DNA from: an uncultured Anaerolineae bacterium
GTDB taxonomy: Bacteria; Chloroflexota; Anaerolineae; VGOG01
Direction: 5' to 3'
DNA: 64,000 nucleotides
NCBI GenBank assembly: GCA_964510205.1
Contig: CAZEBW010000003.1
Location: forward strand, 13,274 to 77,273
Made by a program: the position numbers and the translations under genes. The notes below the pieces were generated by a model that worked only from the letters and a program-made list of their open reading frames with translations, was not told the origin of the DNA and made no database searches. Below are positions 9,447 to 56,094 of the stretch, in pieces. Every line of letters begins with the position of its first letter. Position 1 is the stretch's first letter.

Positions 9447-10235
9447 CTAACGGTTCAACGTACGCAAAATCGCCAGCAGTTTCTTCTTTGCTTCGGGGGA
9501 CATATCCAGGCTTTCCAGTTCCGCCTCCAAAGCTTCGAACGTACCATAGCCCCCAAGATAGCCATTGACGCGCGCCGCAGCCGTGGAGTTCACGAAATCA
9601 TCACTGTCGAAATATATGGCCTTGAACACTTGTTCAACCTCTGGCACCTGACGCAACCGATACTTCTGATGATAGTCCTCAGCCAGGTAAAACTCCGACG
9701 CGGGGACGATCTCGGTAAAAATCGCCTTTCCTCTCATGACCTCCTGGCGGTCTCTTGTTTCTGTGGCTAAACTTTTCTGCTCCTCGTCGTGGTAAAACAC
9801 AATGGACATATACTGCCGTGACCAGGGGCGGCTCGTTGGGCTGTGGCTATCCCAGAAGACATCCAGCAATTCGGCGTACGAGATCTGGGCAGGGTCATAG
9901 TCAATCTGGATCGTCTCGGTGTGATCGCCCAGGTTGTAGTAGGTGGGGTTCTTCGTCGTCCCGCCGGCGTATCCAACGCGGGTACGGATCACACCAGGGA
10001 GGCTCCCGAACCGGGAGTCTGGCCCCCAGAATCAGCCCAGCGCAAATGTCGCCGTTTCGATTGGTGCAGAGGCGTCTATGGTCGGTGTCGCCGCTTCGGT
10101 GATCGCATTACTCTCTGTCAGATCCATTGCTTTCCTTTCCATCCGCAAACTAAGAACAATCATCGCTGATATAGTCAATGCACTTACCAGCAAGATTCTT
10201 AGAGTTGGCGTAGTCGCTTTGACAAGATCTATCAT
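9447..10235 (-). CDS. msrA: Peptide methionine sulfoxide reductase MsrA with an in-frame UGA (putative selenocysteine) at the catalytic position; an N-terminal hydrophobic signal/anchor
   Basis: Downstream part: [32 protein letters not shown]. Upstream part in the same frame: ...ETATFALG-[TGA at 10032-10034][14 protein letters not shown]. This reconstitutes the MsrA active-site motif G(C/U)FWG. There is an ATG at 10235 with a GGAGAGGG SD. The ORF track splits the gene into 10032..10235 and 9447..9992. Confidence 0.65.
10001..10020 (-). promoter_or_regulatory. SECIS-like hairpin 14 nt downstream of the in-frame UGA of msrA (mRNA: CUCCCG-GUU-CGGGAG)
   Basis: A perfect 6-bp stem with a G/U-containing apical loop, placed where a bacterial SECIS would sit. 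Confidence 0.45.
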
Positions 10236-10530
10236 GGCGTATCCCTCTCCTCACCAATCATGCTGGAGAATAAATCACGTACCGCATGATCCGCTTGGTT
10301 TCCGAGCGGCGGGCGACTTCTTTGAAGTCTGAGCTTCGGAACATAGAGGGCAGGGCGTGGTAGGCGAAGAGTTCCTCGAAGGCAGCGCACCGTTCTGGCG
10401 TCGGGCCACCCAAGCACAAAGCTTGTGGGCTTTGGCTTGCTTCATCAGCGCAGGATTGACTCAAGGACAATCCCTGCGTGAACTCATGGCCCCGCTCTTG
10501 GCCCTCACAGGCCACTGCAAAAGTCGAGTC

Positions 10531-16700: not shown

Positions 16701-17579
16701 TCACGAACGCAAACCCCGGCCGCGCGGCGCCCACTCCGTTGGATCGCCCCAGTCGGTCGCTTTCCAGCGCATCTTCTCTGGCCGCACCAGCGGGATGATG
16801 TCCTTGAAGAAAGCCAGTCGCTCTTCGTCGGTCATGGGCGTGAAGGCCTCGGCGATGGCCAGGTTCTGCTCCAACTGGGCCATGCTCTCCATCCCCACGA
16901 CGACCGTGCTGACCGGCAGAGCGAAGGCGTAGCGCAGGGAGCGCTCCACTTCGTGGGTCAGGCTGCCCAGCCCCAGCACTTTCATGCCGATGGTAGCGAC
17001 CCCCTTGGCGTTGGCCACGGGCAGAAACTCCTCGGCGAAGCTGAGGATAAAGTGGTCCAGCGCGGAGAGGGCGACGAGCGCGCTGTCAAACGGGAAGCGG
17101 TTGAGGGCCTCGATCAGGATCTGCGGGTCGGTGTGGCCACTGATGCTGATGTGGTGCACCAACCCCTCCTCGCGGGCTTGCAACGCTGCCTCCAGCGCGC
17201 CGTCCTGGCCGGTGAATTCGTCCAGCCGAGCGTAGTCGTACACGTTGTGCAGCCGCCACTCGTTCACGTAGTCGGTCTGCAGCCGCGTCAGGCTCTCCTC
17301 CAGTTGGCGGCGGGCCCCATCGCGGGTGGTGTCCCAGGTTTTGGTGGCGATCCACATCTCCGCCCGCCGGTGTTTGACTACCTTGCCCAGGCGGGTCTCC
17401 GCCTGCCCATTGGAGTATATCCAGGCGGTGTCGAAGTAGCGGATGCCTCGGTCAATGGCGGTGTTGACGATGGCGATGGCCTCTTCCTCCGTGCAGTGAT
17501 GCTCGTCCACAATCCGCTGCCCGCCAAAGCTCAAGATGGGGAACGATTCTCCGGTTTTGCCGAACGGTCTGGTTTCCAT
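16701..17579 (-). CDS. Aldo/keto reductase
   Basis: METRPFGKTGESFPILSFGG...DTAWIYSNGQAE, typical of the AKR family. The start was chosen at 17579 (GGAGG SD). The long in-frame upstream extension (to 18023) is Arg/Pro-rich and judged non-coding. Confidence 0.75.
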   Translation of the reverse strand: METRPFGKTGESFPILSFGGQRIVDEHHCTEEEAIAIVNTAIDRGIRYFDTAWIYSNGQAETRLGKVVKHRRAEMWIATKTWDTTRDGARRQLEESLTRLQTDYVNEWRLHNVYDYARLDEFTGQDGALEAALQAREEGLVHHISISGHTDPQILIEALNRFPFDSALVALSALDHFILSFAEEFLPVANAKGVATIGMKVLGLGSLTHEVERSLRYAFALPVSTVVVGMESMAQLEQNLAIAEAFTPMTDEERLAFFKDIIPLVRPEKMRWKATDWGDPTEWAPRGRGLRS

Positions 17580-17615
17580 ATTTGACCTCCTGATAGTGCA
17601 GTTCAAGGTGCTCAA

Positions 17616-17646
17616 GGTGCAACGCACTTCGAAAGTGCGTTGCACC
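17616..17646. repeat. Palindromic hairpin GGTGCAACGCACTT-CGAA-AAGTGCGTTGCACC (copy 1 of 2; see 56190..56221)
   Basis: A 14-bp perfect stem, intergenic, downstream of the oxidoreductase gene. The same stem sequence recurs at 56190. Confidence 0.7.
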
Positions 17647-17665
17647 TGGTTGGGTGAATAGCAAT

Positions 17666-18784
17666 TCAGTCTAGCTCGCCCTCCATCAGCCCCAGCGGCA
17701 GGGGGGCGGGCCTTTGGCAACGGCTGGCAATCTCGATGTGCCGGCCGCTCTCCGACGATTCCTCTAGGGCGCGCATGACGTCGAGCACGTGATAGGCCAG
17801 TTCGCCGCTGGCGCGGTGGGGGCGGCCAGAGGCGATGGCGTAGGCCATGTCCGCTACGCCGATTCCGCGGCCCACCTCGGTGCTGTGGGTGAGCGGCATC
17901 TCGCTCCATTCGTCGGCCCCGGCCCGGCGGATCCAGACGGATCCGCCAAAAAGGCTGGGGTCGGTGGCGCTGAGGGTGCCTTCTGAGCCGTAGATCTCGA
18001 GGTGTGGCAGCTTGGCGGCCCACATGTCGAAGCTGAGGATGGTCGTGGCCACCGGCCCGCTGACGAAGTCGAGCGCTCCGCTGACGTGGGTGGGGACTTC
18101 GACCGCTATCCTGCGCCCGCGATGCAGCTCACTGGTGGCGATGCGTTCGGGGAAAGAGATTCGAGCCAAACTGGTGACCCGCTTCACGGGTCCCAACAGG
18201 TTGACCAGCGCGGTCAGGTAATACGGCGCCATGTCAAATATAGGCCCTGCCCCTACCTGGTAGAAAAAGTCCGGGTTTGGATGCCAGGACTCGGGGCCGT
18301 GGCCGTGACCGGGCAAAAACGCCGCCGCCGCCACCGGCTCGCCAATCCAGCCGTCGTCAATCAGCTTGCGGCACGTCTGCTGGTGGCCGCCCAAGAAGAT
18401 GTCCGGCGCGCAGCCGACCCGCACGCCCTTCTCCTGGGCCGCAGCGAGCACCTTTTGCCCGTCTCGGCGGGTCACGGCCAGAGGCTTCTCAGAATAGACG
18501 TGCTTCCCGGCGTTGATGGCCGCCAGACTGACCTCGGCGTGGGCCGTGGGCACGGTGAGGTTGACCACGATTTGGATCTCTGGATCCGTCAACACCTCCT
18601 CGACCGAGCAAACGCGGCAGACCTCGAACTCCTCGCCCTTTTCCTCCGCTTTGAGAGCGTCAATATCCGCACAGGCCGCGATGTCGAGGATCTCGAAGAT
18701 GCGGCATCCCCTGATGTAGGCTCCGAAAATACTCCCCGTGCCTATAATACCGATTTTAACTGGTGACTGCTCCGCCCGTGTCAT
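17666..18784 (-). CDS. Gfo/Idh/MocA family NAD(P)-dependent oxidoreductase
   Basis: N-terminal Rossmann VKIGIIGTGSIFG and an EKP motif. The start is placed at MTRAEQ (18784); that ATG is contributed by the terminal repeat of a palindromic element. Confidence 0.7.
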   Translation of the reverse strand: MTRAEQSPVKIGIIGTGSIFGAYIRGCRIFEILDIAACADIDALKAEEKGEEFEVCRVCSVEEVLTDPEIQIVVNLTVPTAHAEVSLAAINAGKHVYSEKPLAVTRRDGQKVLAAAQEKGVRVGCAPDIFLGGHQQTCRKLIDDGWIGEPVAAAAFLPGHGHGPESWHPNPDFFYQVGAGPIFDMAPYYLTALVNLLGPVKRVTSLARISFPERIATSELHRGRRIAVEVPTHVSGALDFVSGPVATTILSFDMWAAKLPHLEIYGSEGTLSATDPSLFGGSVWIRRAGADEWSEMPLTHSTEVGRGIGVADMAYAIASGRPHRASGELAYHVLDVMRALEESSESGRHIEIASRCQRPAPLPLGLMEGELD

Positions 18785-18896
18785 TGCGAGGAGCGTTCCT
18801 TCGGCTTCGCTCAGGACAAGTTTTTGCGACGAAGCAATCTCCTCCTTGCGGCTTGGGGATTGCTTCGCTTCGCTCGCAATGACAGCCTGCGTAGTC
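18769..18896. repeat. MITE-like palindromic element, family A (TIRs GTCATTGCGAG...CTCGCAATGAC with internal inverted repeats GAAGCAATC/GATTGCTTC); copy 1
   Basis: Lies between the isomerase stop (18900) and the oxidoreductase start. A related copy sits inside the GT39 ORF at 37487-37654. Confidence 0.65.
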
Positions 18897-18899
18897 ACT

Positions 18900-19667
18900 T
18901 TAACTTTTGTTTCCACGGGCGAAACCTCCTTCGACGAGGTATTGATAGCTTCTCTCCACCGCTTCCAGCATGTCGGCGGCGCAGTGGTCCAACTCGACGA
19001 TCAGCCATGCCGCTGCCCCCTCGGCGGCCTGGAAGATGGCGGGGAAATCCAGCACGCCATCGCCGACGGCGACGTGCGGCTCACCCTGGATGGCTGGGCC
19101 ATCTTTGAGGTGCAGCAGTGGGGCGCGCGGGCCGAGTTGGCTCGCCACTTTGGCCGGGTCCACGCCCGCCGTCTCGATCCAGTACGTGTCCAGCTCGAAG
19201 AACACGCCTGGGTCGAGGCGCTCCAGCATCACCTGGTAGACGTAGCGGCCTTCGACCTGGAGAAACTCCCACCAGTGGTTGTGAATCCCAAACGCCAGGC
19301 CGTTTTCGGCCGCCACGGCATGGGCTTCGTTGAACAGGTCACACGTCTGCTGGATGAGGTCCATCGTCTCGAAGCTCTCTGGCCCTTTCCCGGACACAAT
19401 GCGCTGGCAGCCCATGGCGGCCATGAAGTCCAGCACCCTGGTTTCGTCTTTGCCGACTGGCAGGGGCGTGTGCGCGGAGGGCGCCTCAAGCCCCAGCTCT
19501 TTGAAGAGCCTGGCAGCCTCGGCGGTTGTCGTGCCGGGAAGATGGAAGATGGGTTCTACGCCGACGTAGCCGATATCGGCGACTTTTTTCATCACCCCAA
19601 CAAAATCCTGGGCCAGGGCTTCGCGCAAGGTGTACAGTTGTAGGGCAATGGGAATGGTCATGAACAT
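18900..19667 (-). CDS. Sugar phosphate isomerase/epimerase (xylose-isomerase-like TIM barrel)
   Basis: MTIPIALQLYTLREAL..., typical of this family. The start is at 19667 or 19661, with a GAGGAGG SD. Confidence 0.7.
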   Translation of the reverse strand: MFMTIPIALQLYTLREALAQDFVGVMKKVADIGYVGVEPIFHLPGTTTAEAARLFKELGLEAPSAHTPLPVGKDETRVLDFMAAMGCQRIVSGKGPESFETMDLIQQTCDLFNEAHAVAAENGLAFGIHNHWWEFLQVEGRYVYQVMLERLDPGVFFELDTYWIETAGVDPAKVASQLGPRAPLLHLKDGPAIQGEPHVAVGDGVLDFPAIFQAAEGAAAWLIVELDHCAADMLEAVERSYQYLVEGGFARGNKS

Positions 19668-19690
19668 CCTCCTCAATTTTGATTTGAGTG

Positions 19691-19765
19691 TGGCCAAAAT
19701 CTGTTGTAGTAGCGACTTCAGTCGCTTGGAACGACTAAAGTCGTCACTACCACAGGTTTTAGCCA
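19691..19765. repeat. Palindromic element, family B (GTAGTAGCGACTTCAGTCGCTTG...GACGACTAAAGTCGTCACTAC, flanked by CCAAAATCTG/CAGGTTTTAG); copy 1
   Basis: Two internal hairpins. The reverse-complement copy is at 31990..32092. Confidence 0.65.
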
Positions 19766-19811
19766 CGCCCTTTTTGATTTCCACACTGATTGCTGATTTC
19801 CTGATTCCTGA

Positions 19812-24239: not shown

Positions 24240-26189
24240 TCACACGTCTTCCAACAAACTCGTCACCCATCCGATGTCTAGCTCGTGCAGCTTGGCCGGG
24301 CGAGGCACGCCGGTGTCGGGGTCCCAGCCCATCATCTCGTAGTACAGCGGCAGGGCGGCTTCCACAGCGGCGGGGTCTATCGGTGCGCCGGGGCCGAGGG
24401 GCTCGGCCATGCGGGGCGGCAGGCGGTCGTCGGCGGGGGTGAACCCCTGCCGCACGTTGAAGGCGCGAGCCAGGGTCACCAGCCGCTCGGCGGCCTTCCA
24501 CAGCTCCCAGGCGGTGGTATCCCAACCCGTCACCGCCCGCACCGCTTCCACCACCTGATGGTTGCCATAGGGCAGGAAATTGCACAGGCACAGGCAGTTG
24601 TTCAAATGCTGGCGCAGACCGCCATAGAGGATAGCCCGCACCTTCTCCGGGCCGAGGGAGGTGGGCGGCATGGGCTCCAGCACGCCTAGGTTGCGGACGC
24701 TGTCCATGCCGGCCTCGTGCTCGTAGTTGCTGTCGAACGCGCTGTGACAGTGATCGGCGCCGGTGTAGGAGACGGCGTAGCCCAGCCCCAGGCCGTGCTG
24801 GATGCGAGGGTCGTGATAGGGCAGCTCCTGCCCCTTAACGTGCACGGCCAATCGCTCCGCGCCGCCGCCGCCCCTCAGTCCCCCCCAACCTTGGGAGGGA
24901 AGTTTCGCATTTCCGCCGCCAATGTGCTCAGCCGCCCGTTTGCTCCCCTCCGCCAGCAGGTCGCCGATGCCCTGGCGAGCGGCGATTAGTTCCAGCAGTT
25001 GCAGCACGGCCTCCGCATTGCCAAAGCGCAGCTCCAGCCCGCCGCTGTCCTCCAGCGTCAGCAGCCCTTTCTCAAAGCACTCCATGGCGAAGGCGATGGC
25101 GCCTCCGGCGGAGATGCTGTCCAGTCCCAGGGCGTTGCACCGCTCGCTGGCCTTGGTCACGGCGTAGACGTCGGCCACGCCGCAGTTGGCGCCCAGGCTG
25201 ACGGCGGTCTCGTACTCCGGGCCGCCGTAGGCCGGATCCACCGCGTACGGCTGCTCTAGGTCAGCCACTTTTTTGCAGCCCACGGCGCAGGCGTAGCAGC
25301 TCTCCATGCGGACCACCACGTGCTCGGCCAGGCCCTCGCGTCCCAGGACGTCGGCCCCGTCCAGGTGGCCGTCGCGGAAATTGTGCACCGGCAATGCCCC
25401 GTCGCGGTTGTAGGGCATCATGCTGACGCCGGTGCCCAGGTCGGGAAACTTGCCCATCAGGTCTCGGTAGTTGTCTCGCATCCAGCGGGCCAGCGCGCCG
25501 ACTTGAGCGGAATCGGCCAGGGGGACTTTACCAGTGCCCCGCACGGCCACTGCTTTCAGTTTCTTGGATCCCATCACCGCGCCCAGGCCGGTGCGTCCAG
25601 CGGCGTGCTTCAGGTCGGCCACGATGTTGGCGTAGCGGACCAGTTTCTCGCCGGCCGGCCCGCAGAGGGCCACGCGGGCTCGCGGCTCGCCCAGTTCCTC
25701 TCGGATGGCGGTGTGGGTCGGCTTGTTCTCCAGCCCCCACAGGTGGGCGGCGTCCCGCAGCTCTGCCTGGCCGCCGTGCCCTGAGGCCGCTTCGCTTACA
25801 GTCGAAGCGTCGTGCACCCAGAGGTAGACGGGCGATGCCGCCTGCCCCTCGACGATGATGGCGTCGAAGCCCGCGGCCTTCAATTCCGCCCCCCAGAAGC
25901 CGCCCACTTCTGATTCGCCCATCGCGCCGGTGAGGGGCGAGCGTGCGCCGATGGCGTTGCGTCCGCTGCCGGCCAGGGGCGCGCCGGTGAGCGGCCCGCA
26001 GGCGAAGATCAGGCGGTTCTCCGGCCCCAGGGGATCGGTGTGGGGAGGCGCCTCTTTCAGCAGGTAGTAGGCCACAAATCCCGCCCCGCCCAGGTAGCGG
26101 CGGTAGAAAACGTCGTCGGGCGTCTCGACGGTGATCTCTCCATTGGTCAGATTGACGCGCAGGATGCGGCGATGGTATCCGAAAGACAT
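24240..26189 (-). CDS. Aldehyde:ferredoxin oxidoreductase family (tungsten/molybdopterin-containing AOR)
   Basis: The N-terminal domain MSFGYHRRILRVNLTNGEI and AOR-family Cys ligand regions (CYACAVGC, CNALGLD). The start is at 26189. Confidence 0.8.
   Translation of the reverse strand: MSFGYHRRILRVNLTNGEITVETPDDVFYRRYLGGAGFVAYYLLKEAPPHTDPLGPENRLIFACGPLTGAPLAGSGRNAIGARSPLTGAMGESEVGGFWGAELKAAGFDAIIVEGQAASPVYLWVHDASTVSEAASGHGGQAELRDAAHLWGLENKPTHTAIREELGEPRARVALCGPAGEKLVRYANIVADLKHAAGRTGLGAVMGSKKLKAVAVRGTGKVPLADSAQVGALARWMRDNYRDLMGKFPDLGTGVSMMPYNRDGALPVHNFRDGHLDGADVLGREGLAEHVVVRMESCYACAVGCKKVADLEQPYAVDPAYGGPEYETAVSLGANCGVADVYAVTKASERCNALGLDSISAGGAIAFAMECFEKGLLTLEDSGGLELRFGNAEAVLQLLELIAARQGIGDLLAEGSKRAAEHIGGGNAKLPSQGWGGLRGGGGAERLAVHVKGQELPYHDPRIQHGLGLGYAVSYTGADHCHSAFDSNYEHEAGMDSVRNLGVLEPMPPTSLGPEKVRAILYGGLRQHLNNCLCLCNFLPYGNHQVVEAVRAVTGWDTTAWELWKAAERLVTLARAFNVRQGFTPADDRLPPRMAEPLGPGAPIDPAAVEAALPLYYEMMGWDPDTGVPRPAKLHELDIGWVTSLLEDV
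25779..25808. repeat. 30-nt in-frame mini-insert CCTGAGGCCGCTTCGCTTACAGTCGAAG(CG), family D (encodes STVSEAASGH); copy 1, inside the AOR gene
   Basis: An identical 28-30-nt string recurs inside the M20 peptidase gene at 31756-31785. It carries an internal palindrome, CTTCG...CGAAG. Confidence 0.7.
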
Positions 26190-26218
26190 CTTGCTCTCCT
26201 CTCTTTCTCGTCTCAGTT

Positions 26219-26929
26219 TCACCTCGACAGGACTTCTCTTTGCACCTCGAATAGCTCTCGGATGCCTCTCTCCGCCAAATCCAGCAACTCGTGCATAACC
26301 TGGCGGGCGAAGGTTTGGCCCTCGGCGGCGCCTTGCACTTCCACGTATTCTCCCTCGGCGGTCATGACCACGTTGAAGTCCACCTCGGCCACGGAATCCT
26401 CATCGTAGCAGAGGTCGAGCACCGCTTGGCCGTTCACTACGCCCACGCTGACGGCGGCCACGGGCGTGGTCAGGACGTCGGGGGGAAGCAGGCCGCCTCG
26501 GATGAGCTTGTCCAGGGCGATGGCCAGGGCCACGTAGCCGCCCGTAACCGAAGCCGTGCGGGTGCCGCCGTCGGCCTGGATGACGTCGCAGTCTACGATC
26601 AGGGTGCGCTGGCCCAGCTTTTCCAAGTTGACGGCGGCACGCAGGCTGCGGCCGATGAAACGGCGGATCTCCTGGGTGCGCCCGCGGAGACCACGGGTCT
26701 CGCGGGGGGTGCGCTCGTGGGTGGAGCGGGGCAGCAGGGCGTATTCGGCCGTGATCCAGCCCTGGCCTTGACCAAAGAGCCAACCGGGCACCCTCTCCTC
26801 CACGGTTGCGTTGCAGATGACGCGCGTGGCGCCCATTTCGATCAGCACCGAGCCTTCGGGGTACTGCACGTAGTGCGGCGTGATGGTCACCGGCCTCAGT
26901 TCGTCGTTGTTCCGCCCGTCAATCCGCAT
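26219..26929 (-). CDS. rph: Ribonuclease PH
   Basis: [13 protein letters not shown]...[26 protein letters not shown]. Confidence 0.9.
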
Positions 26930-44771: not shown

Positions 44772-47700
44772 ATGCACAGAATTCGTCCTATTGTCCTTGT
44801 CGTGTTGGCACTGTTTTTGACCTTGATGCTGCGCCCCGACTGGCACGGTGGAGGCACCGTGCTGGCAATTGGGTTCGCCGTCAACTCGACGGCTGACACC
44901 CCCGACGGCTTCCCGGGCGACTTCGTTTGCGATACCGGCTTCGGCCCTAATGATTGGACCGGCATCTGCACGCTCCGCGCCGCGATCGAAGAGGCCAACG
45001 CGAGTGCGGGCCCTCATGCGATCACCTTCACTTTCGCTGGCACGATTCAGCCCCTCACCGAACTGCCGGCCATTACGATGTCCGGCGTCACTATCGACGG
45101 AGACGGCGACATCGTGCTGGATGGCAGCAGCGCCGGCGCCGGTGCCAACGGCCTGGTGATTCAGACCAGCAACACCACCGTTAAAGGGCTGGTGATCAAC
45201 GGCTTTCAGGTGACGAATCTCGCCGGCAATGACTTCAGTAAGGGCAACGGCGTCGTCATCCGGACGGGCACGGGCAACATCATAGCCGCCAACTTCATCG
45301 GTACCAACGCTGCCGGGACCGCCTGCGTCGGCAACGGGGGCAGCGGAGTGCTGATCGGCGGCTCGAACAGCATTGGGGCCGCCAGCAACAATACAGTGGG
45401 TGGCACCAATGCCGCGGATCGTAACGTCATCACCTGCAATGGCTTCCAAAATCAGACGGTCACTGGATGGGACGGGGTGACGATCTGGGCCACCTCTGCC
45501 AATGCGGCCAACAGCAACGTCGTGCAGGGCAACTACATCGGCACCGACGTCACTGGCGCGATGACGTTGACGGCCGGCACGGACATCTCCGGCACCATCC
45601 ACATCGGCAACACTGGCAACGGCGTTCGGATCGCCGGCGGGTCGTCCAACACGGTCGGTGGCACGTCCGCGAACGCACGCAACATCCTCTCCGGCAACGA
45701 GCTGGCCGGCGTGCGCATTGAGGCCAGCCCGGTGTTCACGCGCGAGGCCAACAGCAACGTCGTGCAGGGCAACTACATCGGGACGGACGTCAACGGCACC
45801 GGCGACCTGGGTAACCTGGACGTCGGCGTCTACATCATAGGGCTCGTGGATGACGCCGACAGCAACCAAATCGGCGGGACGGACGCCGGCGCCGGTAATC
45901 TCATCTCAGGCAACGGTGCGAGCGGCGTGTTCATTCTTGGTGGTAAGGCCGACCACAATACGGTCAGCGGCAACCGCATCGGCACCGACGTCAACGGCAC
46001 TGCCGCCATGCCCAACGACAGCGGCGGTGTCATGATCACGGATGCAATGACCAACACCATCGGCGGCACAACTGCCGCGGCGCGCAACCTCATCTCCGGC
46101 AACGCGGGCATCGGCGTCTCGATTATCAACAGCGATGACGATGGTGATGCCGACGGCAACCTCATCCAGGGCAACTACATTGGCACGGAGGTCAGTGGGA
46201 CCACGGCGCTGCCCAACACGCTGACCGGCGTCGTGATCACGAACGCCGCGAACAACGACGTCGGGGGCACGGCCGCTGGCGCCGGCAACCTGATCTCCGG
46301 CAACGGCGAATACGGCGTGATCATTATGAACTCCGGCGCCACCGGCAACGTCGTGCAGGACAACTACATCGGAACCGATTTCGACGGCGATGCCGCCATC
46401 CCCAACCAGGGCGCCGGCGTCCTGATCGTCAACGCCTCGGGCAACACGGTGGGCGGGTCGGGCAACCTGATCTCAGGCAATGTCCTTCAGGGTGTACGCC
46501 TCATCGGTGCTGACAACAACACGGTGCGGGACAACCTCATCGGCACGCAGGCCGACGGGACGAGCCCGCTGGGCAACGGCTCGCACGGCGTGGTCATCGC
46601 GGATGGCGACAACAACGTCATCGGTGTGGATGGTGTGACCCCGCAGGACAACACCATCGCTCACAACGGCGGCGACGGGGTGCTGGTGTACTCCGGCACC
46701 GGCAACCAGATCCTGTCGAACTCGATCTTCGACAACACCGAGCTGGGCATTGATCTGGGCGACGACAACGTCGTGACGCCCAACGACGAGGACGATCCCG
46801 ACACGGGCGCCAACAACCTGCAGAACTACCCGGTGCTGACAACGGTTACCACCGGCAGCACCGACCTTCAAGGTGCGCTCCTCAACAGCACGCCCAATAC
46901 TCTGTTCACCATCCAGGTCTTCACCAACACGGTATGTGATGCCTCAGGTTTCGGCGAGGGCCAAACATATCTCGGCTCGACGACGGTGGAGACTGGGGGC
47001 GACGGAAACAAGCTCTTCGACGTCTCCTTCACCACCACGGTCCCCGACGGGCAATTCCTCACCGCGACAGCGACCGACCCGTACAGCAACACCTCGGAGT
47101 TCTCCAATTGCATTCCGGTCCCTTCAGCGCCGGTGCTGGCCATCAACAAGGAATGGCAAGACCTGAATGGCGGGGCTGCGCTCCCCGGCGACACGCTACT
47201 ATACACCATCAACTACTCAAACACCGGTAATGCGCCGGCCACCGGGGTGGTCATCACGGACACCTACAGCATCTCCTGCACCGCCATCAGTAACGTCACC
47301 ACGGACCTCAACTTCACCACCTTCTTCTCCGACACCACCAGGATTCGCTGGCCGGCAACGGGCGGAATAGTCCTTGACGCGCAGGCCGGCGGGTCGGTGA
47401 GCTACCGATGCACCTTGGACGACTCCTTCCCGGACGGGATCACCAATGTGGAAAACACAGCCACCATTGACTCGGATCAGACCGCGCCGCTGCCAGATAC
47501 GGAGACGGTCCCGGTCGATGTAGAGGCGGTGTTGACTATTGACAAGGAGTGCACGCCGGCCATGGGGAATAGGCCAGGTGACACAGTGCGCTGCGTGATC
47601 CAGTACGCCAACACCGGCCATGCGTATGCGACTGGTGCCACCATCGTGGACGACTACGACGAGAATTATGGCGACGTGCCAGATGCCTCGATCACGGGCA

Positions 47701-48488
47701 GTGCGCACTTTGGGGTTGGCACGGACGATAGTAACACCATCACGTGGGGCCCGTCAACGATACCGGCGGGCGAGTCGGGCCAGGTGGAGTACGACTACAC
47801 TCTGGCTGTAGCCGGCACCTTCCCTCATGGCACGACGCCGGTGATGAACACAGCTACCATAGACTCCAACGACACGGATCCGGTGGCGGATCCCGAGACG
47901 ATCCAGGTCACGGCGGCGGCGGTGCTGACCATCAACAAGCAGGCACTAGACCCGAATGGTGGGCTCGCAGAGCCCGGCGACATTCTGCAATATACCATCC
48001 ACTACACCAACACGGGCGACGCGCAGGCGACTGGAGTGTTCATCACCGACGACTACAGCGACTTATGTGCCATCAGTGGTGTGACAACAGACGCCAACTT
48101 CACCACCTTCTCCAACATCTCTGGGGTGTTGCGCTGGCCGCAGAACCCGAACATGACGACGCTGGCGGCAGGGGCAAGTGGATCATTGAGCTACGAGTGC
48201 CAGTTGCAGGACCCCTTCCCGGCAGGGACGACACGGGTGAGCAACACCAGCACCATAGACTCGAATGAAACCGGCCCGAAGCAAGACACGGAGACGCTCT
48301 TCACCGCCTGCTACGACTTCAATGGGAATGGGGTGGTGGATATAGGTGACATCATGCAAGTGGCTGTTCGATGGGGTATCGCCCCCGGCGACCCTGACTG
48401 GGATGACAAGTACGACGTGAATGGGGACGGGGCCATCACTATACTAGATATCATGATGGTAGCGGCCCAGTGGGGCCAGGCTTGCTAG
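44772..48488 (+). CDS. Giant secreted protein with right-handed parallel beta-helix repeats, DUF11 (conserved repeat) domains and a C-terminal type-I dockerin-like module
   Basis: Signal/TM N-terminus. Many repeats of the GNG.GV.I..S.NN.IGG type. The TATIDS...DT-type DUF11 repeats. C-terminal DFNGNGVVDIGDIM...DVNGDGAITILDIM. Confidence 0.7.
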   Translation: MHRIRPIVLVVLALFLTLMLRPDWHGGGTVLAIGFAVNSTADTPDGFPGDFVCDTGFGPNDWTGICTLRAAIEEANASAGPHAITFTFAGTIQPLTELPAITMSGVTIDGDGDIVLDGSSAGAGANGLVIQTSNTTVKGLVINGFQVTNLAGNDFSKGNGVVIRTGTGNIIAANFIGTNAAGTACVGNGGSGVLIGGSNSIGAASNNTVGGTNAADRNVITCNGFQNQTVTGWDGVTIWATSANAANSNVVQGNYIGTDVTGAMTLTAGTDISGTIHIGNTGNGVRIAGGSSNTVGGTSANARNILSGNELAGVRIEASPVFTREANSNVVQGNYIGTDVNGTGDLGNLDVGVYIIGLVDDADSNQIGGTDAGAGNLISGNGASGVFILGGKADHNTVSGNRIGTDVNGTAAMPNDSGGVMITDAMTNTIGGTTAAARNLISGNAGIGVSIINSDDDGDADGNLIQGNYIGTEVSGTTALPNTLTGVVITNAANNDVGGTAAGAGNLISGNGEYGVIIMNSGATGNVVQDNYIGTDFDGDAAIPNQGAGVLIVNASGNTVGGSGNLISGNVLQGVRLIGADNNTVRDNLIGTQADGTSPLGNGSHGVVIADGDNNVIGVDGVTPQDNTIAHNGGDGVLVYSGTGNQILSNSIFDNTELGIDLGDDNVVTPNDEDDPDTGANNLQNYPVLTTVTTGSTDLQGALLNSTPNTLFTIQVFTNTVCDASGFGEGQTYLGSTTVETGGDGNKLFDVSFTTTVPDGQFLTATATDPYSNTSEFSNCIPVPSAPVLAINKEWQDLNGGAALPGDTLLYTINYSNTGNAPATGVVITDTYSISCTAISNVTTDLNFTTFFSDTTRIRWPATGGIVLDAQAGGSVSYRCTLDDSFPDGITNVENTATIDSDQTAPLPDTETVPVDVEAVLTIDKECTPAMGNRPGDTVRCVIQYANTGHAYATGATIVDDYDENYGDVPDASITGSAHFGVGTDDSNTITWGPSTIPAGESGQVEYDYTLAVAGTFPHGTTPVMNTATIDSNDTDPVADPETIQVTAAAVLTINKQALDPNGGLAEPGDILQYTIHYTNTGDAQATGVFITDDYSDLCAISGVTTDANFTTFSNISGVLRWPQNPNMTTLAAGASGSLSYECQLQDPFPAGTTRVSNTSTIDSNETGPKQDTETLFTACYDFNGNGVVDIGDIMQVAVRWGIAPGDPDWDDKYDVNGDGAITILDIMMVAAQWGQAC

Positions 48489-50610: not shown

Positions 50611-53600
50611 ATGAACATCCAAGCTCTTTTCCAACCCAAACGACGGCGCCTGCTGGTGCTTGTCATGCCGGTGCTGGTCGCCCTGCTCGTCGTGGCGCTG
50701 ATCATCGGGTCGTTGTCGGTCTCCGCCTTCGGCGATCTGGAGGTGACCTTCAAATCGGGGTCGGAGCCACCAACTACGACCAGGGCCGGTACCAGTCACT
50801 CGTTCTCAGTCGAGGTGACAAACAACGGCACTACGGATCCACCGGCTGAGGCCGTGGTGTTTGAGTACCGAGCGCCGGCGGGTGTGGTCATCACTGAGAT
50901 TAAGTCAGATGCACCTGGCCCCTGCGAGGTTGGCACCGAGGGCGACCCCAGTGATCCGTCCATCTGCTCTCTGGGCAACATGGCCGGCGACACCTACACC
51001 ATTGACATCACGGTCTACGTCCTCCCCGACGTCCCGCATGGCACGCTGCTGGACCACGACGTGCGGGCTTGGCAGTTCGGCACGGAGGAGGATCCACCCG
51101 ACAACGAGAACCACGCCTTCGTCGAGGTAGAAGCCGAGGCCGACCTCTCTGTGTCCAAGATAGCCGAGGGCGACGTGGTCACGGGCTATGACGACAACAC
51201 CTTCGAGGACATCCTCACGCCCACCGCGAATGAGGTGACGGCCGGCGAGCTGATCAAGTACACCGTCACCATTACCAACGCTGGCCCGTCGGACGCCCAG
51301 AACGTGGTGGTCACCGATACCCTGCCGGCCAAGTTCGATTTCATAGAGAGCGTGCCCGCTGGCTGTTGGGCCAACGCCGCCAACCCGCTGCTGGTCACCT
51401 GCCTGCTGAACACCATGCCGGCCACCACCACCCAGCAGTTGGAGCTGGTGGCTCGCACCCGGCCGGATGCGGCCATTGACAGCCTGGAAACGACGGGGAT
51501 CGCGGACGACCTGGACAACGTGCGCCCCGTGACCAACACTGTCCAGGTGACCAGCACCACCTCTGATACAGTGACTTCAAACAACACTAACATTGTGACC
51601 ACAACGGTGAACGCGGTCGCCAACCTGCAGATCACCAAGACCGACCTCCCCGACCCGGTGCTGGCCGGCGAGGAAGTGGTCTACGAAGTCACCGCCAAGA
51701 ACCTCGGGCCGTCTAAGTCGCGCGATATCGAGATTGATGACTTACTCCCCGACGGCCTGGTCTTCGTCCGCTGCGAGCCGCTGGATCCCGACGAGGTACC
51801 GGTCTGCAGCGCCGTGGGGCAGATGGTGACGCTGGACGACTTCCGCATCAACAGCCTGACGCGGGACGACCTGATGCCAGACGAGGAGCGGTCCTTCCGC
51901 ATCGTGGCCTACGCCCGCAGCAACCTGGTCAAAGAGCCCAATCTCTATGCAGGTGCACCGGATGCGGTGGGCAACCTGGTGACCCTCACTAACACGGTTT
52001 GGATCTCGGATGCACTCGACATCACCGACTGGTATACGGCCACTACCAGGGACCGCGAGTTGACCGGTGTCACCAGCGAGGCCGACCTGGAGGTGCGCAA
52101 GACGGACACGCCCAATCCCACACCCGACGATGGCTACCTGATCTACGACCCCGTCACCAACAGCTTCATCTACACCTACACGATCACCATCGAGAACCTG
52201 GGGCCGTCGGACGCCGGACGGGTGATCCTGACCGACACGCTGCCGATCTACGCCAGCCTGGACATGGTGGGCGGCGATCCGATGACTGCTATTACCACGA
52301 CCGGCTCCCCCACGGACGCCCTTGATATCCGCTTCCGCGACGATGGCGTGGTCATCGTGGACTGGGGCCAGATCGCCGGCAACGATGACCGTCGTGACGA
52401 CCTGACCCTTGATCCCGCCAACCCGTCGCTGCCCACGACGCGCACCCTCACCATTCGCGTGCGGGTGGACGCTGACGTGGCGCCGGACATCGGCGTCCTG
52501 GAGAACCGGGTGCAGGTAACCACCGTGGCCGGTGACGTCTGTCCGACCCAGACTGGCAGCCCTGTGTGCACGGACCCGTGGCCCCACGGCTACACCCCGA
52601 CGCCGGATCCGGACCTGAGCAACAACGTGTATGTTGAGTACACAGCGCTGGTGTCGCCGGAGGTCAAGGTGGACAAGAAGGTCTACGTCCGCAAAAGCCC
52701 GGCCAGAAGCATTGACGTCACCACCGATGGCCTGACGGAGGTGGAGCGCTGTGAGGCCTACGCCGCCGACGACGTCCTGACGCTGCCGGGCGACGAGGTG
52801 ACCTACTGCTACCTCATCACCAACGAGGGCGACTCCTGGCTCAACTCCGTCACGCTGCAGGACCAGTCCGATGCGCTCATCTACCGCGCGCCGCTAGACC
52901 GCTTCGAGGTCATCTACCCGGGCCAGACGGACCAGCCTCCGTTGCGGGGCGCCATCACCCGGGTTGGTGCTAACACGGACGAGGCCCAGACCATTAATAT
53001 CGCCACAACATACGCTGCGGTGGCTGTCATGTCGCCGAAAGGCGTGCCGGATCCGGATGGCTACGACCACATCCTGATCACCCGCAGGTTCACAGTGGAC
53101 TTCCCACTGCTTGGCGCCGTCGCTGGAATCGTCTGGGACGACGCAAACGAGAACCACGTGGTTGACCTGGGCGAGACGCCCTGGCCAGGCAAGAAAGTTT
53201 GGCTATATGACGAGTCGGGCGCCGTGGACTTGGACGTCACGACCACTGGTGCGGATGGGAGATATGCATTCCACGACGTTGCGCCCGGAAAGTATAAAGT
53301 ACTGGTGCGCGAGCCTGCCCCTCTAAACACGGTTCTCGGTGTCTCGCCTGTGATCACATTCGATCCGTCGAAAGGGTACTCGATAGCCAACCTCGACCAC
53401 CCCAGCAAGCTGTGGTATATCGAGAGTGAGGAGTATGAGGAGCCCATATTCCGCATGTTGGGCACCAACGTGGCGCGGGTGGACGCGATACCGAGCACCA
53501 AGTACAGCACTTCCCTGCCGGGCATCGAGCCCTCCGGCGATTGCGAGGACCCCGATCTCGTCTGCGACACCGACCTACTCCACGACACCCTGGCTTTGCC

Positions 53601-56094
53601 AGTGCTCGAAGATACCACTAAGGAGTGGGATATCTTCGAGGACAATGGGGATAACCTACCTAGCCCAGATGACGTCATTGAATACACCGTGGACATCCCC
53701 AATACGGGCATCATCGAGGCCACGGGGGTGGAGTTCTACGACGGGCTGTACAACTGGATCAATGACGAAGTGGACGACCTGAAAGTGCCGGGCTGGCTGA
53801 TCAACGGCAGCGTATCCGCTGCCATCCACGTCACCGGCCGTGACCCGGACACCGGGCGCGAGATTGACGCCGACCTGGAGCCGCCAGATCTGGCCTTCGG
53901 CGAGGACATCCTGCTCCGTACCCACGCGCCAGTGATTGGCGGCGGCTACCTTGAGCTCACCTACCCGTCGCGCATCGTGCTGGACGAGGAGATCCTCAAG
54001 GGCAATAACGACGGCGACGATGAGGTCCACGTAGCTACGCGGCTGCCCATCCCGCCCAAGGGCTACCTGCTGCGCTTCGACGGCGAGACCTACGACCCGC
54101 CCATCCCAGTCACTTTCTCCCTGCGCATCAAGTACCAGGTGCGCATCAAGGAGACCAAGTACGTGAGGCTGGGCACCATCGTCCTCAACCACGGCTGGGT
54201 GGATTACAACGAGATGGGCCTGTTCGACCAGCGATTCCCGGATTTCGACCCCACGGATCCGGATGCTCACACAGCGGACAACAAGGTGGCCAACAACCAC
54301 GCCGGTACGCCCGGGCGGGACTGGGAGAGGCCTGAGTTCCCCGGCTGGCCGGCGATTCCGGTGGACGTTGAGCCCACGAACTACCTTGGCGAGCGCTTCG
54401 ACGACTACGCGCTGCCTGATGCTGCTCTGCGTGACGACGACGATCCGACCTGGTTCAAGCTGGAGCAGATGCCGCGTCGCCTTCAGTTGCCGGCCATTGA
54501 TAACGCGGGCGGTTGGGAAACCCAGATCCAAGTGCAGAACGCGGGTGATGAAGATACGGGAGGGATCGTGTTCTTCTGGGGAGAGTACTCGGCCAAGTGT
54601 CCTTACAGCGATCCGGGCCCGATTGAGTCTGCCTGCAAGCGGGTGCTTGAGAACGCTGTCTGGCCTCTGAAGTCCCAGAGCATCCCCAGCGCAGCAAGGT
54701 CGGCCATAGCCTACTCGGTGGACGACGACCTCTTTGAGCAGGCCTGTAGGGATGCGGCTGATGCTGTGGGTGACAGTGCCGCCTGGCAGGATTGGGAGGA
54801 TGCTTACAAAGGCAGCGGCGAGCCGATCGCAGTGATCGTTGAGCGCAAAGGACCTAACGATCATGATACGCTGGTTTCCAGCGCCTACCCTGGTATCTCG
54901 GAAAACAGGGAGGGGGGTGGACCTCCATATCGGTACTTTGCCCCCTATGCCATGAGGCTGTATCAGGGCTTGGATACGGAGATGATCATCCAGAACTCCG
55001 GTCGGGGGTGCGCTTCCATCGTCCTCAACTATCAGAAGCAGGGGGCCTGTGTCTTCAGCTATGATGAGGACATCTTCTTGGCGCCGGGCGAATCCATCCG
55101 GAAGCGAGTGCCAGAGGTGCTGGGCGCCGAATGGCTGGGTTCGATCTACCTCGAGTCGGACGAACCCTTGGGCATCGTCATAGATCAGACCAGCTTCCTG
55201 CCGTCGGAAGACAGGGGGACGCTGTTGACCTATGAAGCCCGGCCCTACAGGCTCACCACCGACACAGTCTTCTATGGCGACCTGGTTTGGCGCGAGCTGA
55301 GCGGCTGGGAGGCCAGCATCCAGGTGCAGAACCTGACCCAGCATTCCCAGCCTACCTTCGTAACGGTGGAGTTTTTCGATCAGAGTGGCGATTCCATCCT
55401 CTTCCTGGGCGAGTGGATCTGCCGTGCCGGAGGGAAAACCTTCTATCTGCCGGCCGTCACTGACCTGGGGGTCAATTATCCTGCTGGGTACGTGGGGGCG
55501 GTCGAAATCCAGTCCCACGGGCAGGTTGACTATCCGGGCGGAATGCATGATGGCCAGCCCATCTTCGCCGTGATTGACCTGAAGAAGACAAAGATGTACG
55601 ATGAGAATCTGCATCGGTGGAGACACACCGTGCCTGGTGAGATCCAGGGTGGGGCCTACAACGCTCTTTCGGAGACGGACAAGGAGGCAACCAGGGCCAT
55701 CATGCTCCCCCACCTGGCCAAGGCCAAAGATGGTCAGGGCGTAACCTCTCTGATCGCTGTCCGCAACAATTCCAACTGCAATGACATCGCGCTCAAGCTG
55801 GAAGTCACAAACCGGGTCGGGACCACGGTTACCTATGTAACCAACTTCTATCTGTCCACTAGGCACATCAAGCTCATAGACCTGGCCGACATAGGCACCA
55901 TAAATCCTGGCTTCGTCGGTGCAGGGACGGTAGAAGTCACATACGTGGAACAGTTGTGCGACGAGGACGCCGATGGACATATAGATGAGGCGCCCATTGT
56001 GCCTTCTGTGGTGGTGGTGAACAGGGGCGCTGGTGCTGGTGACATCACTGAGGTATACAAGGGTATTCCCGTGGCTTTTTGGGGAACCCCGTGA
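50611..56094 (+). CDS. Giant (1827 aa) secreted DUF11-repeat surface protein with a large C-terminal region of unknown function
   Basis: N-terminal TM/signal. Several DUF11 repeats (LSVSK...TVTITNAGPSDAQNVVVTDTLP). AAGGAGG SD. Confidence 0.65.
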   Translation: MNIQALFQPKRRRLLVLVMPVLVALLVVALIIGSLSVSAFGDLEVTFKSGSEPPTTTRAGTSHSFSVEVTNNGTTDPPAEAVVFEYRAPAGVVITEIKSDAPGPCEVGTEGDPSDPSICSLGNMAGDTYTIDITVYVLPDVPHGTLLDHDVRAWQFGTEEDPPDNENHAFVEVEAEADLSVSKIAEGDVVTGYDDNTFEDILTPTANEVTAGELIKYTVTITNAGPSDAQNVVVTDTLPAKFDFIESVPAGCWANAANPLLVTCLLNTMPATTTQQLELVARTRPDAAIDSLETTGIADDLDNVRPVTNTVQVTSTTSDTVTSNNTNIVTTTVNAVANLQITKTDLPDPVLAGEEVVYEVTAKNLGPSKSRDIEIDDLLPDGLVFVRCEPLDPDEVPVCSAVGQMVTLDDFRINSLTRDDLMPDEERSFRIVAYARSNLVKEPNLYAGAPDAVGNLVTLTNTVWISDALDITDWYTATTRDRELTGVTSEADLEVRKTDTPNPTPDDGYLIYDPVTNSFIYTYTITIENLGPSDAGRVILTDTLPIYASLDMVGGDPMTAITTTGSPTDALDIRFRDDGVVIVDWGQIAGNDDRRDDLTLDPANPSLPTTRTLTIRVRVDADVAPDIGVLENRVQVTTVAGDVCPTQTGSPVCTDPWPHGYTPTPDPDLSNNVYVEYTALVSPEVKVDKKVYVRKSPARSIDVTTDGLTEVERCEAYAADDVLTLPGDEVTYCYLITNEGDSWLNSVTLQDQSDALIYRAPLDRFEVIYPGQTDQPPLRGAITRVGANTDEAQTINIATTYAAVAVMSPKGVPDPDGYDHILITRRFTVDFPLLGAVAGIVWDDANENHVVDLGETPWPGKKVWLYDESGAVDLDVTTTGADGRYAFHDVAPGKYKVLVREPAPLNTVLGVSPVITFDPSKGYSIANLDHPSKLWYIESEEYEEPIFRMLGTNVARVDAIPSTKYSTSLPGIEPSGDCEDPDLVCDTDLLHDTLALPVLEDTTKEWDIFEDNGDNLPSPDDVIEYTVDIPNTGIIEATGVEFYDGLYNWINDEVDDLKVPGWLINGSVSAAIHVTGRDPDTGREIDADLEPPDLAFGEDILLRTHAPVIGGGYLELTYPSRIVLDEEILKGNNDGDDEVHVATRLPIPPKGYLLRFDGETYDPPIPVTFSLRIKYQVRIKETKYVRLGTIVLNHGWVDYNEMGLFDQRFPDFDPTDPDAHTADNKVANNHAGTPGRDWERPEFPGWPAIPVDVEPTNYLGERFDDYALPDAALRDDDDPTWFKLEQMPRRLQLPAIDNAGGWETQIQVQNAGDEDTGGIVFFWGEYSAKCPYSDPGPIESACKRVLENAVWPLKSQSIPSAARSAIAYSVDDDLFEQACRDAADAVGDSAAWQDWEDAYKGSGEPIAVIVERKGPNDHDTLVSSAYPGISENREGGGPPYRYFAPYAMRLYQGLDTEMIIQNSGRGCASIVLNYQKQGACVFSYDEDIFLAPGESIRKRVPEVLGAEWLGSIYLESDEPLGIVIDQTSFLPSEDRGTLLTYEARPYRLTTDTVFYGDLVWRELSGWEASIQVQNLTQHSQPTFVTVEFFDQSGDSILFLGEWICRAGGKTFYLPAVTDLGVNYPAGYVGAVEIQSHGQVDYPGGMHDGQPIFAVIDLKKTKMYDENLHRWRHTVPGEIQGGAYNALSETDKEATRAIMLPHLAKAKDGQGVTSLIAVRNNSNCNDIALKLEVTNRVGTTVTYVTNFYLSTRHIKLIDLADIGTINPGFVGAGTVEVTYVEQLCDEDADGHIDEAPIVPSVVVVNRGAGAGDITEVYKGIPVAFWGTP

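Follow-up and report, generated by a model that had tools for sequence, protein, structure and literature searches.

In a 64,000-nucleotide (nt) stretch of DNA from an uncultured Anaerolineae bacterium (contig CAZEBW010000003.1 of assembly GCA_964510205.1; hereinafter, the window), the msrA gene, located on the minus strand and coding for methionine sulfoxide reductase A, contains an in-frame UGA at the codon for the catalytic Cys. Comparative sequence analysis makes it very likely that this gene encodes a selenocysteine (Sec) form of MsrA and that the short hairpin immediately downstream of the UGA is a bona fide bacterial-type selenocysteine insertion sequence (SECIS); the doubt that attaches to this interpretation concerns mostly the Sec machinery, which is assumed for this organism. 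A second and more tentative proposal, discussed further below, is that members of this family are translated from two alternative starts.

Two open reading frames (ORFs) of the minus strand, 10235-10032 (67 codons, ending with the TGA at 10034-10032) and 9992-9447, share one frame (10235-9992 = 243 = 81x3), and translation through the TGA confirms the layout proposed in the preliminary description of this locus. The full-length frame (10235-9447) consists of 262 codons, including the Sec UGA, followed by a TAG stop (9449-9447), and the resulting protein of 262 amino acids (aa) contains the active-site motif G-U-FWG. The complete active site reads ALG-U-FWGPD, with the UGA in the Cys position; the motif had been recognized correctly in the preliminary description, but the joined peptide quoted there contained FWGGPDS, whereas the actual peptide is FWGPDS, with one G. 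Public annotation cuts msrA into ORFs of 67 aa and 181 aa, as is the case in the gene calls for L081 (Logan SRR7048220), an independent assembly from a different data set. Because the msrA sequence in L081 is identical to that in the window, TGA included, the TGA is not an assembly error.

For the protein family and structure searches, Cys was substituted at the UGA. These searches revealed highly significant similarity to the PMSR family (PF01625, E-value 1.4e-42, 145.9 bits against a cut-off of 23.7) and to TIGR00401 (msrA; 127.4 bits against a cut-off of 108.1), with the catalytic domain spanning residues 61-196 (9648-10055, minus strand). The C-terminal region (9450-9647, minus strand) corresponds to the helical domain that is characteristic of selenoprotein MsrAs; residues 216-246 are covered by the match to PF20939 ('Selenoprotein methionine sulfoxide reductase A, helical domain'; 31.4 bits, cut-off 23.7). 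The best matches in the PDB are the entries for MsrA of Clostridium (Alkaliphilus) oremlandii OhILAs (4U66, 4LWJ, 4LWK, 4LWM and 7C13; hereinafter CoMsrA), which align with residues 54-258 of the window protein without gaps over 205 residues, with an E-value of about 1e-66 and identity in more than half of the aligned positions. In this alignment, the Cys-substituted residue 68, encoded by the UGA at 10032-10034, matches Cys16 of the CoMsrA chains (Sec16 in the native enzyme), and Glu107 matches the catalytic Glu55. CoMsrA, with its native Sec16, lacks a resolving Cys (1-Cys type), possesses an extra helical domain (residues 145-209), surpasses its Cys mutant 20-fold in activity and uses glutaredoxin, not thioredoxin, as the reductant (PMC4479559). 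The two proteins have in common the GUFWGPD motif with the (in the window protein, predicted) Sec nucleophile, the catalytic Glu, the PF20939 domain and the lack of a resolving Cys, given that the 262-aa window MsrA contains no Cys at all. As judged from these shared features, the window MsrA is an enzyme of the 1-Cys (here, 1-Sec) type with a CoMsrA-like C-terminal helical domain. The main difference is at the N-terminus: CoMsrA is a leaderless, cytoplasmic protein of 209 aa, with Sec at residue 16, whereas the window MsrA has approximately 52 additional N-terminal residues that include a hydrophobic anchor, a linker with the motif T/IPxID-x-x-AP and a candidate internal start.

The ortholog set that we analyzed (L001-L085) comprises 80 loci from a scan of one genome per species and 5 from exact-protein look-ups. 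Among 83 related loci, the codon preceding FWG is TGA in 75 distinct orthologous sequences and TGT or TGC in 6 (L005, L053, L056, L064, L074 and L079); true Cys forms are also represented among the database proteins (P0007, P0010, P0011, P0012, P0031 and P0089). Together with the match to PMSR, this distribution bears out the original suggestion that the UGA falls exactly on the catalytic Cys codon of a Sec-MsrA. The TGA-type sequences come from at least 10 phyla, the carriers, according to the record titles, including Anaerolineales and other Anaerolineae, Dehalococcoidia, Chloroflexia, Nitrospirota, Syntrophobacteria and other 'delta proteobacteria', Desulfosarcina, Planctomycetota, Acidobacteriota, Syntrophomonadaceae, Desulforamulus, Synergistaceae, Spirochaetaceae and Calditrichaceae. 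Sequence conservation is equal on both flanks of the TGA (ETATFALG on the upstream side and FWGPDSRFG on the downstream side), and the close relatives of the window gene (L082-L085, with 83-88% aa identity) retain both the TGA and the hairpin. A comparison with one of these, L083, over the 128 catalytic-domain codons that follow the UGA revealed 26 synonymous and 15 amino-acid changes, with 28 nucleotide differences in the third codon position against 8 and 10 in the other two, which indicates purifying selection on the region beyond the UGA.

These observations bear on two explanations that do not involve Sec. Under the first one, the catalytic Cys codon (TGC or TGT) has mutated to TGA and msrA is a decaying nonsense pseudogene; the splitting of the locus into 67-aa and 181-aa ORFs in the public gene calls would fit such a scenario, as would the fact that the Sec machinery of this genome is assumed and no sel genes are present in the 64-kb window. 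However, decay is hard to reconcile with the finding of the same TGA in 75 distinct orthologs that span many phyla, with the intact, conserved flanks and the selection acting downstream, and with the presence of a covarying hairpin in the TGA forms but not in the Cys forms. The pseudogene explanation, which the preliminary description had already judged unlikely, thus appears close to refuted and retains hardly any probability. Under the second explanation, the UGA is a genuine stop, as predicted by gene callers and as implied by the many 181-aa database entries, such that the functional product is the downstream ORF of 181 aa (starting with the GTG at 9992) or else two small proteins are made. 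The 181-aa product, however, would be devoid of both the nucleophile and the GxFWG active site and, as shown by the alignment with 4U66, would begin inside a conserved β-strand of the PMSR domain. In addition, the ETATFALG segment upstream of the TGA is as conserved as the downstream sequence; this possibility, too, is scarcely credible.

The element that we predict to direct Sec insertion is a hairpin with a 6-bp stem (CUCCCG/CGGGAG) and a GUU loop, the core of which occupies 10017-10003 on the minus strand (15 nt; 10019-10001 when an outer G-C pair is included), within the interval 10001-10020 originally quoted for it. The hairpin begins 14 nt after the UGA, as previously noted, and this 14-nt spacer together with the 6-nt 5' arm puts the loop 20 nt from the UGA. 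In the Zhang and Gladyshev consensus model of the bacterial SECIS (bSECIS), as summarized in a 2026 review of prokaryotic selenoproteomes (PMC13188914), the four criteria are an apical loop of 3-9 nt on an upper stem of 4-16 bp, a UGA-to-loop distance of 16-37 nt, a minimum free energy (MFE) of -7.5 kcal/mol or lower, and a G as the first or second nucleotide of the loop, with G or U as the usual next nucleotide. The window hairpin agrees with the model on all four counts, with a 3-nt loop that starts with GU, a stem of 6 bp and a spacing of 20 nt; the 15-nt core folds with an MFE of -8.1 kcal/mol and the 19-nt form with one of -9.2 kcal/mol. Only 2-4 of 200 shuffled sequences fold equally well, but the wider 66-nt stretch does not surpass its shuffles, so that the evidence from this single sequence is modest and resides in the isolated hairpin; the comparative evidence, in our assessment, is decisive.

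This evidence comes from a gap-free alignment, A1, of 71 distinct sequences of the TGA type, which covers 60 nt starting from the UGA. For A1, RNAalifold predicts exactly the same six pairs as in the window hairpin, and compensatory double changes are observed at three of these (alignment columns 18:32, CG/AU/UA; 19:31, UA/GC; 23:27, GC/AU). In this hairpin, 82% of the alignment cells are paired, compared with 21-61% when the partners are slid, and the observed covariation was matched by none of 500 shuffles, a control that, given that the sequences in A1 are related by descent, does not translate into a probability. The loop columns 24-26 (GTT) are invariant in all 71 sequences, and synonymous sites are frozen in the Sec forms: the Arg or Gln codon has G as its third base in all 71 sequences, and Gly is encoded by GGG in 69 of the 71. 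Over the complete set, 65 of the 75 TGA loci pass the bSECIS model, with a mean free energy of -9.6 kcal/mol. The ortholog from a metagenome-assembled genome (MAG) of Syntrophobacter (L038) carries the same TGA and hairpin. The six Cys loci use other synonymous codons in this region and fold at 0 to -4.2 kcal/mol, with none (0 of 6) containing the SECIS hairpin. The co-occurrence of the hairpin with the UGA and its absence from the Cys forms are as expected of a SECIS; thus, the check suggested in the preliminary description, namely, whether the UGA or Cys codon and the hairpin covary across orthologs, has a positive outcome, and the bSECIS geometry with a G/U apical loop that was postulated there holds as well. 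Like the prototype bSECIS elements of Escherichia coli fdhF and fdnG, the hairpin of this family is a stem-loop inside the coding sequence, directly 3' of the UGA, with a small loop that starts with G and then U. Compared with the prototype, it is very short, with a stem of 6 bp and a loop of 3 nt (5 nt in sequences with A.C as the closing pair), and it does not contain the bulged U that is present in the fdhF element.

The specificity of this SECIS-type hairpin for the TGA forms is also pertinent to a third explanation, namely, that the UGA is read through with an amino acid other than Sec, either by near-cognate insertion of Trp or Cys or owing to a lineage-wide reassignment of TGA. Several database homologs (P0002, P0006, P0008 and P0016) are indeed translated with W at this site (GWFWG), apparently as a result of the use of a code with TGA=Trp in gene calling. 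But Trp could not serve as the MsrA nucleophile, and the UGA position aligns with Cys in the true Cys forms and with the native Sec16 of CoMsrA (PMC4479559). Moreover, 19 of the 30 Pfam-supported genes in the window terminate with TGA as an ordinary stop, so recoding of the UGA in msrA is local and a global reassignment of TGA can be rejected. Read-through by a non-Sec mechanism is, accordingly, very unlikely.

Several observations weigh against the identification of this gene as a Sec-MsrA gene with a SECIS and have to be considered together. The 66-nt stretch around the UGA folds no better than shuffled sequences (z = +0.93), and an Rfam scan of the whole window at the gathering threshold yielded no match and, hence, no match to a curated SECIS. 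The covariation in the stem partly follows amino-acid changes (Ser/Ala at +6; Ser/Leu/Ile/Gln at +10), so that protein-level covariation is only partly separable from an RNA-level constraint; the latter is favored by the frozen synonymous sites in the Sec forms. With respect to the machinery, ARAGORN detected no tRNA and, hence, no tRNA-Sec in the 64-kb window, a Pfam scan of 37 ORFs of this window found no SelA, SelB or SelD, and the Sec-decoding capacity of the organism is assumed. For Chloroflexi, reports of selenoproteins date back to 2006 (PMC1794560).

Two additional observations in the window pertain to selenoprotein content. Among the 86 pairs of ORFs in the window that are joined by a TGA, two pass a bSECIS-type filter, namely, msrA and the pair 18767-19333 on the plus strand; the latter is most likely a false positive, being antisense to a xylose-isomerase-like TIM-barrel gene (18900-19784, minus strand) and having no family support. 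The window also encodes an aldehyde:ferredoxin oxidoreductase (24240-26222, minus strand; AFOR_N and AFOR_C, E-value 1e-117), a tungsten/molybdopterin enzyme typical of anaerobes, which hints at an anaerobic lifestyle, such as is typical of selenoprotein-rich bacteria.

Taking the Sec interpretation as the basis, the following mechanism can be envisaged. The UGA at 10034-10032 would be recoded to Sec under the direction of the hairpin at 10017-10003, with its GUU loop 20 nt downstream; like other bacterial SECIS elements, this hairpin would be expected to recruit SelB loaded with Sec-tRNA(Sec). Sec68 would then act as the nucleophile that attacks methionine-S-sulfoxide, and the resulting selenenic-acid intermediate would be resolved by an external thiol, as in CoMsrA, for which glutaredoxin is the reductant; an external thiol is needed because there is no Cys elsewhere in the protein. 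An all-against-all BLAST comparison of the ORFs from 83 loci identified no conserved neighbor that would be a reductant (glutaredoxin or thioredoxin), MsrB or a sel gene, the recurring ORFs being msrA shadow ORFs exclusively. In 5 deltaproteobacterial loci (e.g., L051:3792-4832), an ORF that, by eye, resembles a molybdopterin oxidoreductase of the sulfite-oxidase/MsrP type adjoins the Sec-msrA gene, an association that is not conserved family-wide.

The N-terminal extension of the window MsrA has the features of a membrane-targeting leader. The first ATG (10235-10233), which is located 67 codons before Sec and would produce the long, membrane-targeted form, is preceded by a Shine-Dalgarno (SD)-like sequence, GAGGAGAGGG (10243-10252, minus strand), in place of which the relative with 85% identity, L083, has GGAGAGG. 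The N-terminus, M-I-D-L-V-K-A-T-T-P-T-L-R, is followed by a 17-residue hydrophobic stretch (codons 14-30, ILLVSALTISAMIVLSL; 10146-10196, minus strand; mean Kyte-Doolittle hydropathy of 2.24 over 19 aa), in line with the earlier remark on the hydrophobicity of the N-terminal 35 residues. The leader thus consists of an n-region with two charges (K6 and R13) and a 17-aa h-region, without a lipobox Cys or a clear AxA site, and most likely functions as an uncleaved signal anchor. An N-terminus of the form M-x-x-L-x-K-A-T, followed by a transmembrane segment, is common to the window MsrA and its homologs from Chloroflexota (P0007, P0012, P0016 and P0031); L083 shares the N-terminal 20 residues with the window protein and has a lipobox, VVAC. 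More generally, over 45 open in-frame codons are present upstream in 71 of the 77 loci for which sufficient upstream sequence is available, and among these 71 long forms, 27 contain a lipobox-like motif and most contain a strongly hydrophobic segment.

Judging from these features, the Sec-MsrA clade appears to be largely membrane-anchored or exported. Given the extension, a signal anchor in the window protein and a lipoprotein signal in many of its relatives, the long product is most likely located beyond the cytoplasmic membrane, a possibility that had been raised in the preliminary description and that the homologs with lipoprotein signal peptides support. Among the Cys-type homologs, P0011 (394 aa) is an MsrB-MsrA fusion behind a lipoprotein signal peptide (MKMRLVICLLLTGVMLIGGC...), and P0010 appears to be a truncated call of a P0011-like fusion; the lipoprotein-type fusion P0011 supports an extracytoplasmic role for this MsrA clade. 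The segment between the leader and the PMSR domain of the window protein, TPTIDASAPIE (residues 50-60; 10056-10088, minus strand), represents a linker motif, mostly (I/V)PPID-x-x-(A/V)P, that is found directly N-terminal of the catalytic domain in nearly all leader-bearing orthologs (L001-L080) and is absent from CoMsrA.

Within the leader-bearing frame, a second candidate start is discernible. In the window gene, it consists of an SD-like sequence, GGAAAGGAAAG (10140-10130), and the ATG of M37 (10127-10125; the complete element, GGAAAGGAAAG-ca-ATG, occupies 10125-10140 on the minus strand), and initiation at this site would yield a leaderless isoform of 226 aa. Across the family, in-frame Met codons peak 31-33 codons upstream of Sec, where they occur in 39 of 76 loci, whereas other positions have about 2 each. 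The pairing of the anti-SD sequence with the 17 nt that precede the internal ATG, calculated for 49 long-form loci, has a mean energy of -8.2 kcal/mol, against a background of -2.95 kcal/mol calculated from 21,597 codon positions of the same genes; energies of -6 kcal/mol or lower were obtained for 78% of the loci and 14% of the background (Mann-Whitney p = 2e-24, not corrected for kinship). The purine core, located 4-11 nt before the internal ATG, is found in all three codon phases (19/14/19), which implies an RNA-level signal rather than a peptide motif. Furthermore, the leaderless members of the family (L025, L032, L052, L067 and L077) start at the position equivalent to the internal ATG. 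In L084 (positions 571-830; 83% identity), the upstream ORF is open for 53 codons and includes no proper leader, with the internal SD and ATG intact; this locus represents either a leader-less variant or an assembly frameshift.

The combination of a leader with a conserved internal SD and ATG in most orthologs suggests that one exported and one cytoplasmic isoform are produced. The most economical reading of these comparative data is that the ancestral start has been retained and is still in use, so that a cytoplasmic 226-aa isoform would be made beside the membrane-targeted 262-aa one. Generalizing, we propose, as a possibility to be taken seriously without being regarded as probable, that this clade supplies two compartments from one selenoprotein gene by dual initiation, with an exported form, anchored or lipoprotein, and a leaderless cytoplasmic form. 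Such a two-compartment architecture may be conserved across Chloroflexota, Desulfobacterota, Nitrospirota, Planctomycetota and other phyla, and may include an extracytoplasmic Sec-dependent repair enzyme that has neither a resolving Cys nor a linked reductant gene. Two points count against this proposal: the membrane topology and the existence of both isoforms are inferred from sequence comparison, and the internal SD of the window gene (-5.9 kcal/mol) is weaker than the family mean.

A possible though rather doubtful alternative is that the internal SD-like element and the Met do not constitute a start but rather a translational pause element or a protein motif, such that the long, membrane-targeted form is the sole product. 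Pausing of ribosomes at SD-like sequences within ORFs has been suggested to accompany membrane targeting, and a role of this kind would be compatible with the moderate strength of the internal SD in the window gene and with the 13 TGA-type long-form loci (15 when two Cys forms are included) that have no Met in this region. Neither a pause site nor a peptide motif, however, would readily account for the conservation of an ATG at 4-11 nt after a purine core that occurs in all phases, for the coincidence of this Met with the start position of the five leaderless members, or for the preservation of the internal SD and ATG in L084, where the upstream extension is interrupted.

The proposed dual initiation has partial precedents. 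In mammals, two differently localized forms of MsrA are generated through alternative N-termini that serve different compartments (PMC6316033). In Neisseria PilB and in the membrane-anchored MsrAB2 of Streptococcus pneumoniae, an N-terminal leader places MsrA outside the cytoplasm. All these proteins differ from the window MsrA in being Cys-based and in belonging to other MsrA subfamilies; in PilB and MsrAB2, Trx/MsrB modules are also involved, as fusions or as partners. The literature searched mentions neither signal peptides nor dual starts in connection with bacterial Sec-MsrA, and the leader and internal-start architecture of Sec-MsrA appears to be undescribed; we know of no bacterial two-start arrangement like the one proposed here. 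If both starts are used, this would be a bacterial case of a dual-localized selenoenzyme, and the leader-bearing Sec-MsrA raises the question of which reductant serves a 1-Sec MsrA outside the cell.

Sec-MsrA as such is to be expected. It is among the experimentally verified bacterial selenoprotein families, with the motif GUFWG/H (PMC13188914; see also PMC4479559), and the passages searched in three further papers describe its computational identification in Syntrophobacter fumaroxidans (PMC1794560), in deltaproteobacterial symbionts of Olavius (PMC1976440) and in marine metagenomes (PMC2398784); the same passages mention no signal peptide for MsrA. Those proteins belong to the same family as the window MsrA and have Sec in the same position, the host in the present case being an Anaerolineae (Chloroflexota) MAG. 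The MutS protein agrees with this placement, with 87% identity to proteins named 'Anaerolineae bacterium' or 'Chloroflexi bacterium'. The preliminary description considered a Sec-MsrA notable in this lineage, a view that does not hold up given that about 25 of the 80 loci in our one-genome-per-species scan are from Chloroflexota and that many other phyla are represented as well. Accordingly, the window gene adds a mis-annotated member to a known selenoprotein family and is not unusual for the Anaerolineae; the value of the finding lies in showing how common Sec-MsrA is in anaerobic Chloroflexota and other phyla. The homologs translated with Trp at the Sec site and the many homologs truncated to 181 aa look like the outcome of a systematic mis-annotation of this family, and the in-register hairpin CCCRGUUYGGG, 14 nt after the UGA, provides a simple, family-specific rule for the rescue of such msrA genes.

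Elsewhere in the window, two large ORFs on the plus strand, 44772-48488 (1238 aa) and 50611-56094 (1827 aa), encode proteins with DUF11, SdrD-B-like, DUF7507/DUF7619, β-helix and dockerin-type domains, which are probably cell-surface proteins. On the minus strand, the ORFs 16701-18023 and 17666-18916, both with Pfam matches, overlap by approximately 350 nt. Because the aldo/keto reductase match in the 440-aa ORF of this pair starts only at residue 165, the true start of this ORF is probably located well downstream of the first GTG.

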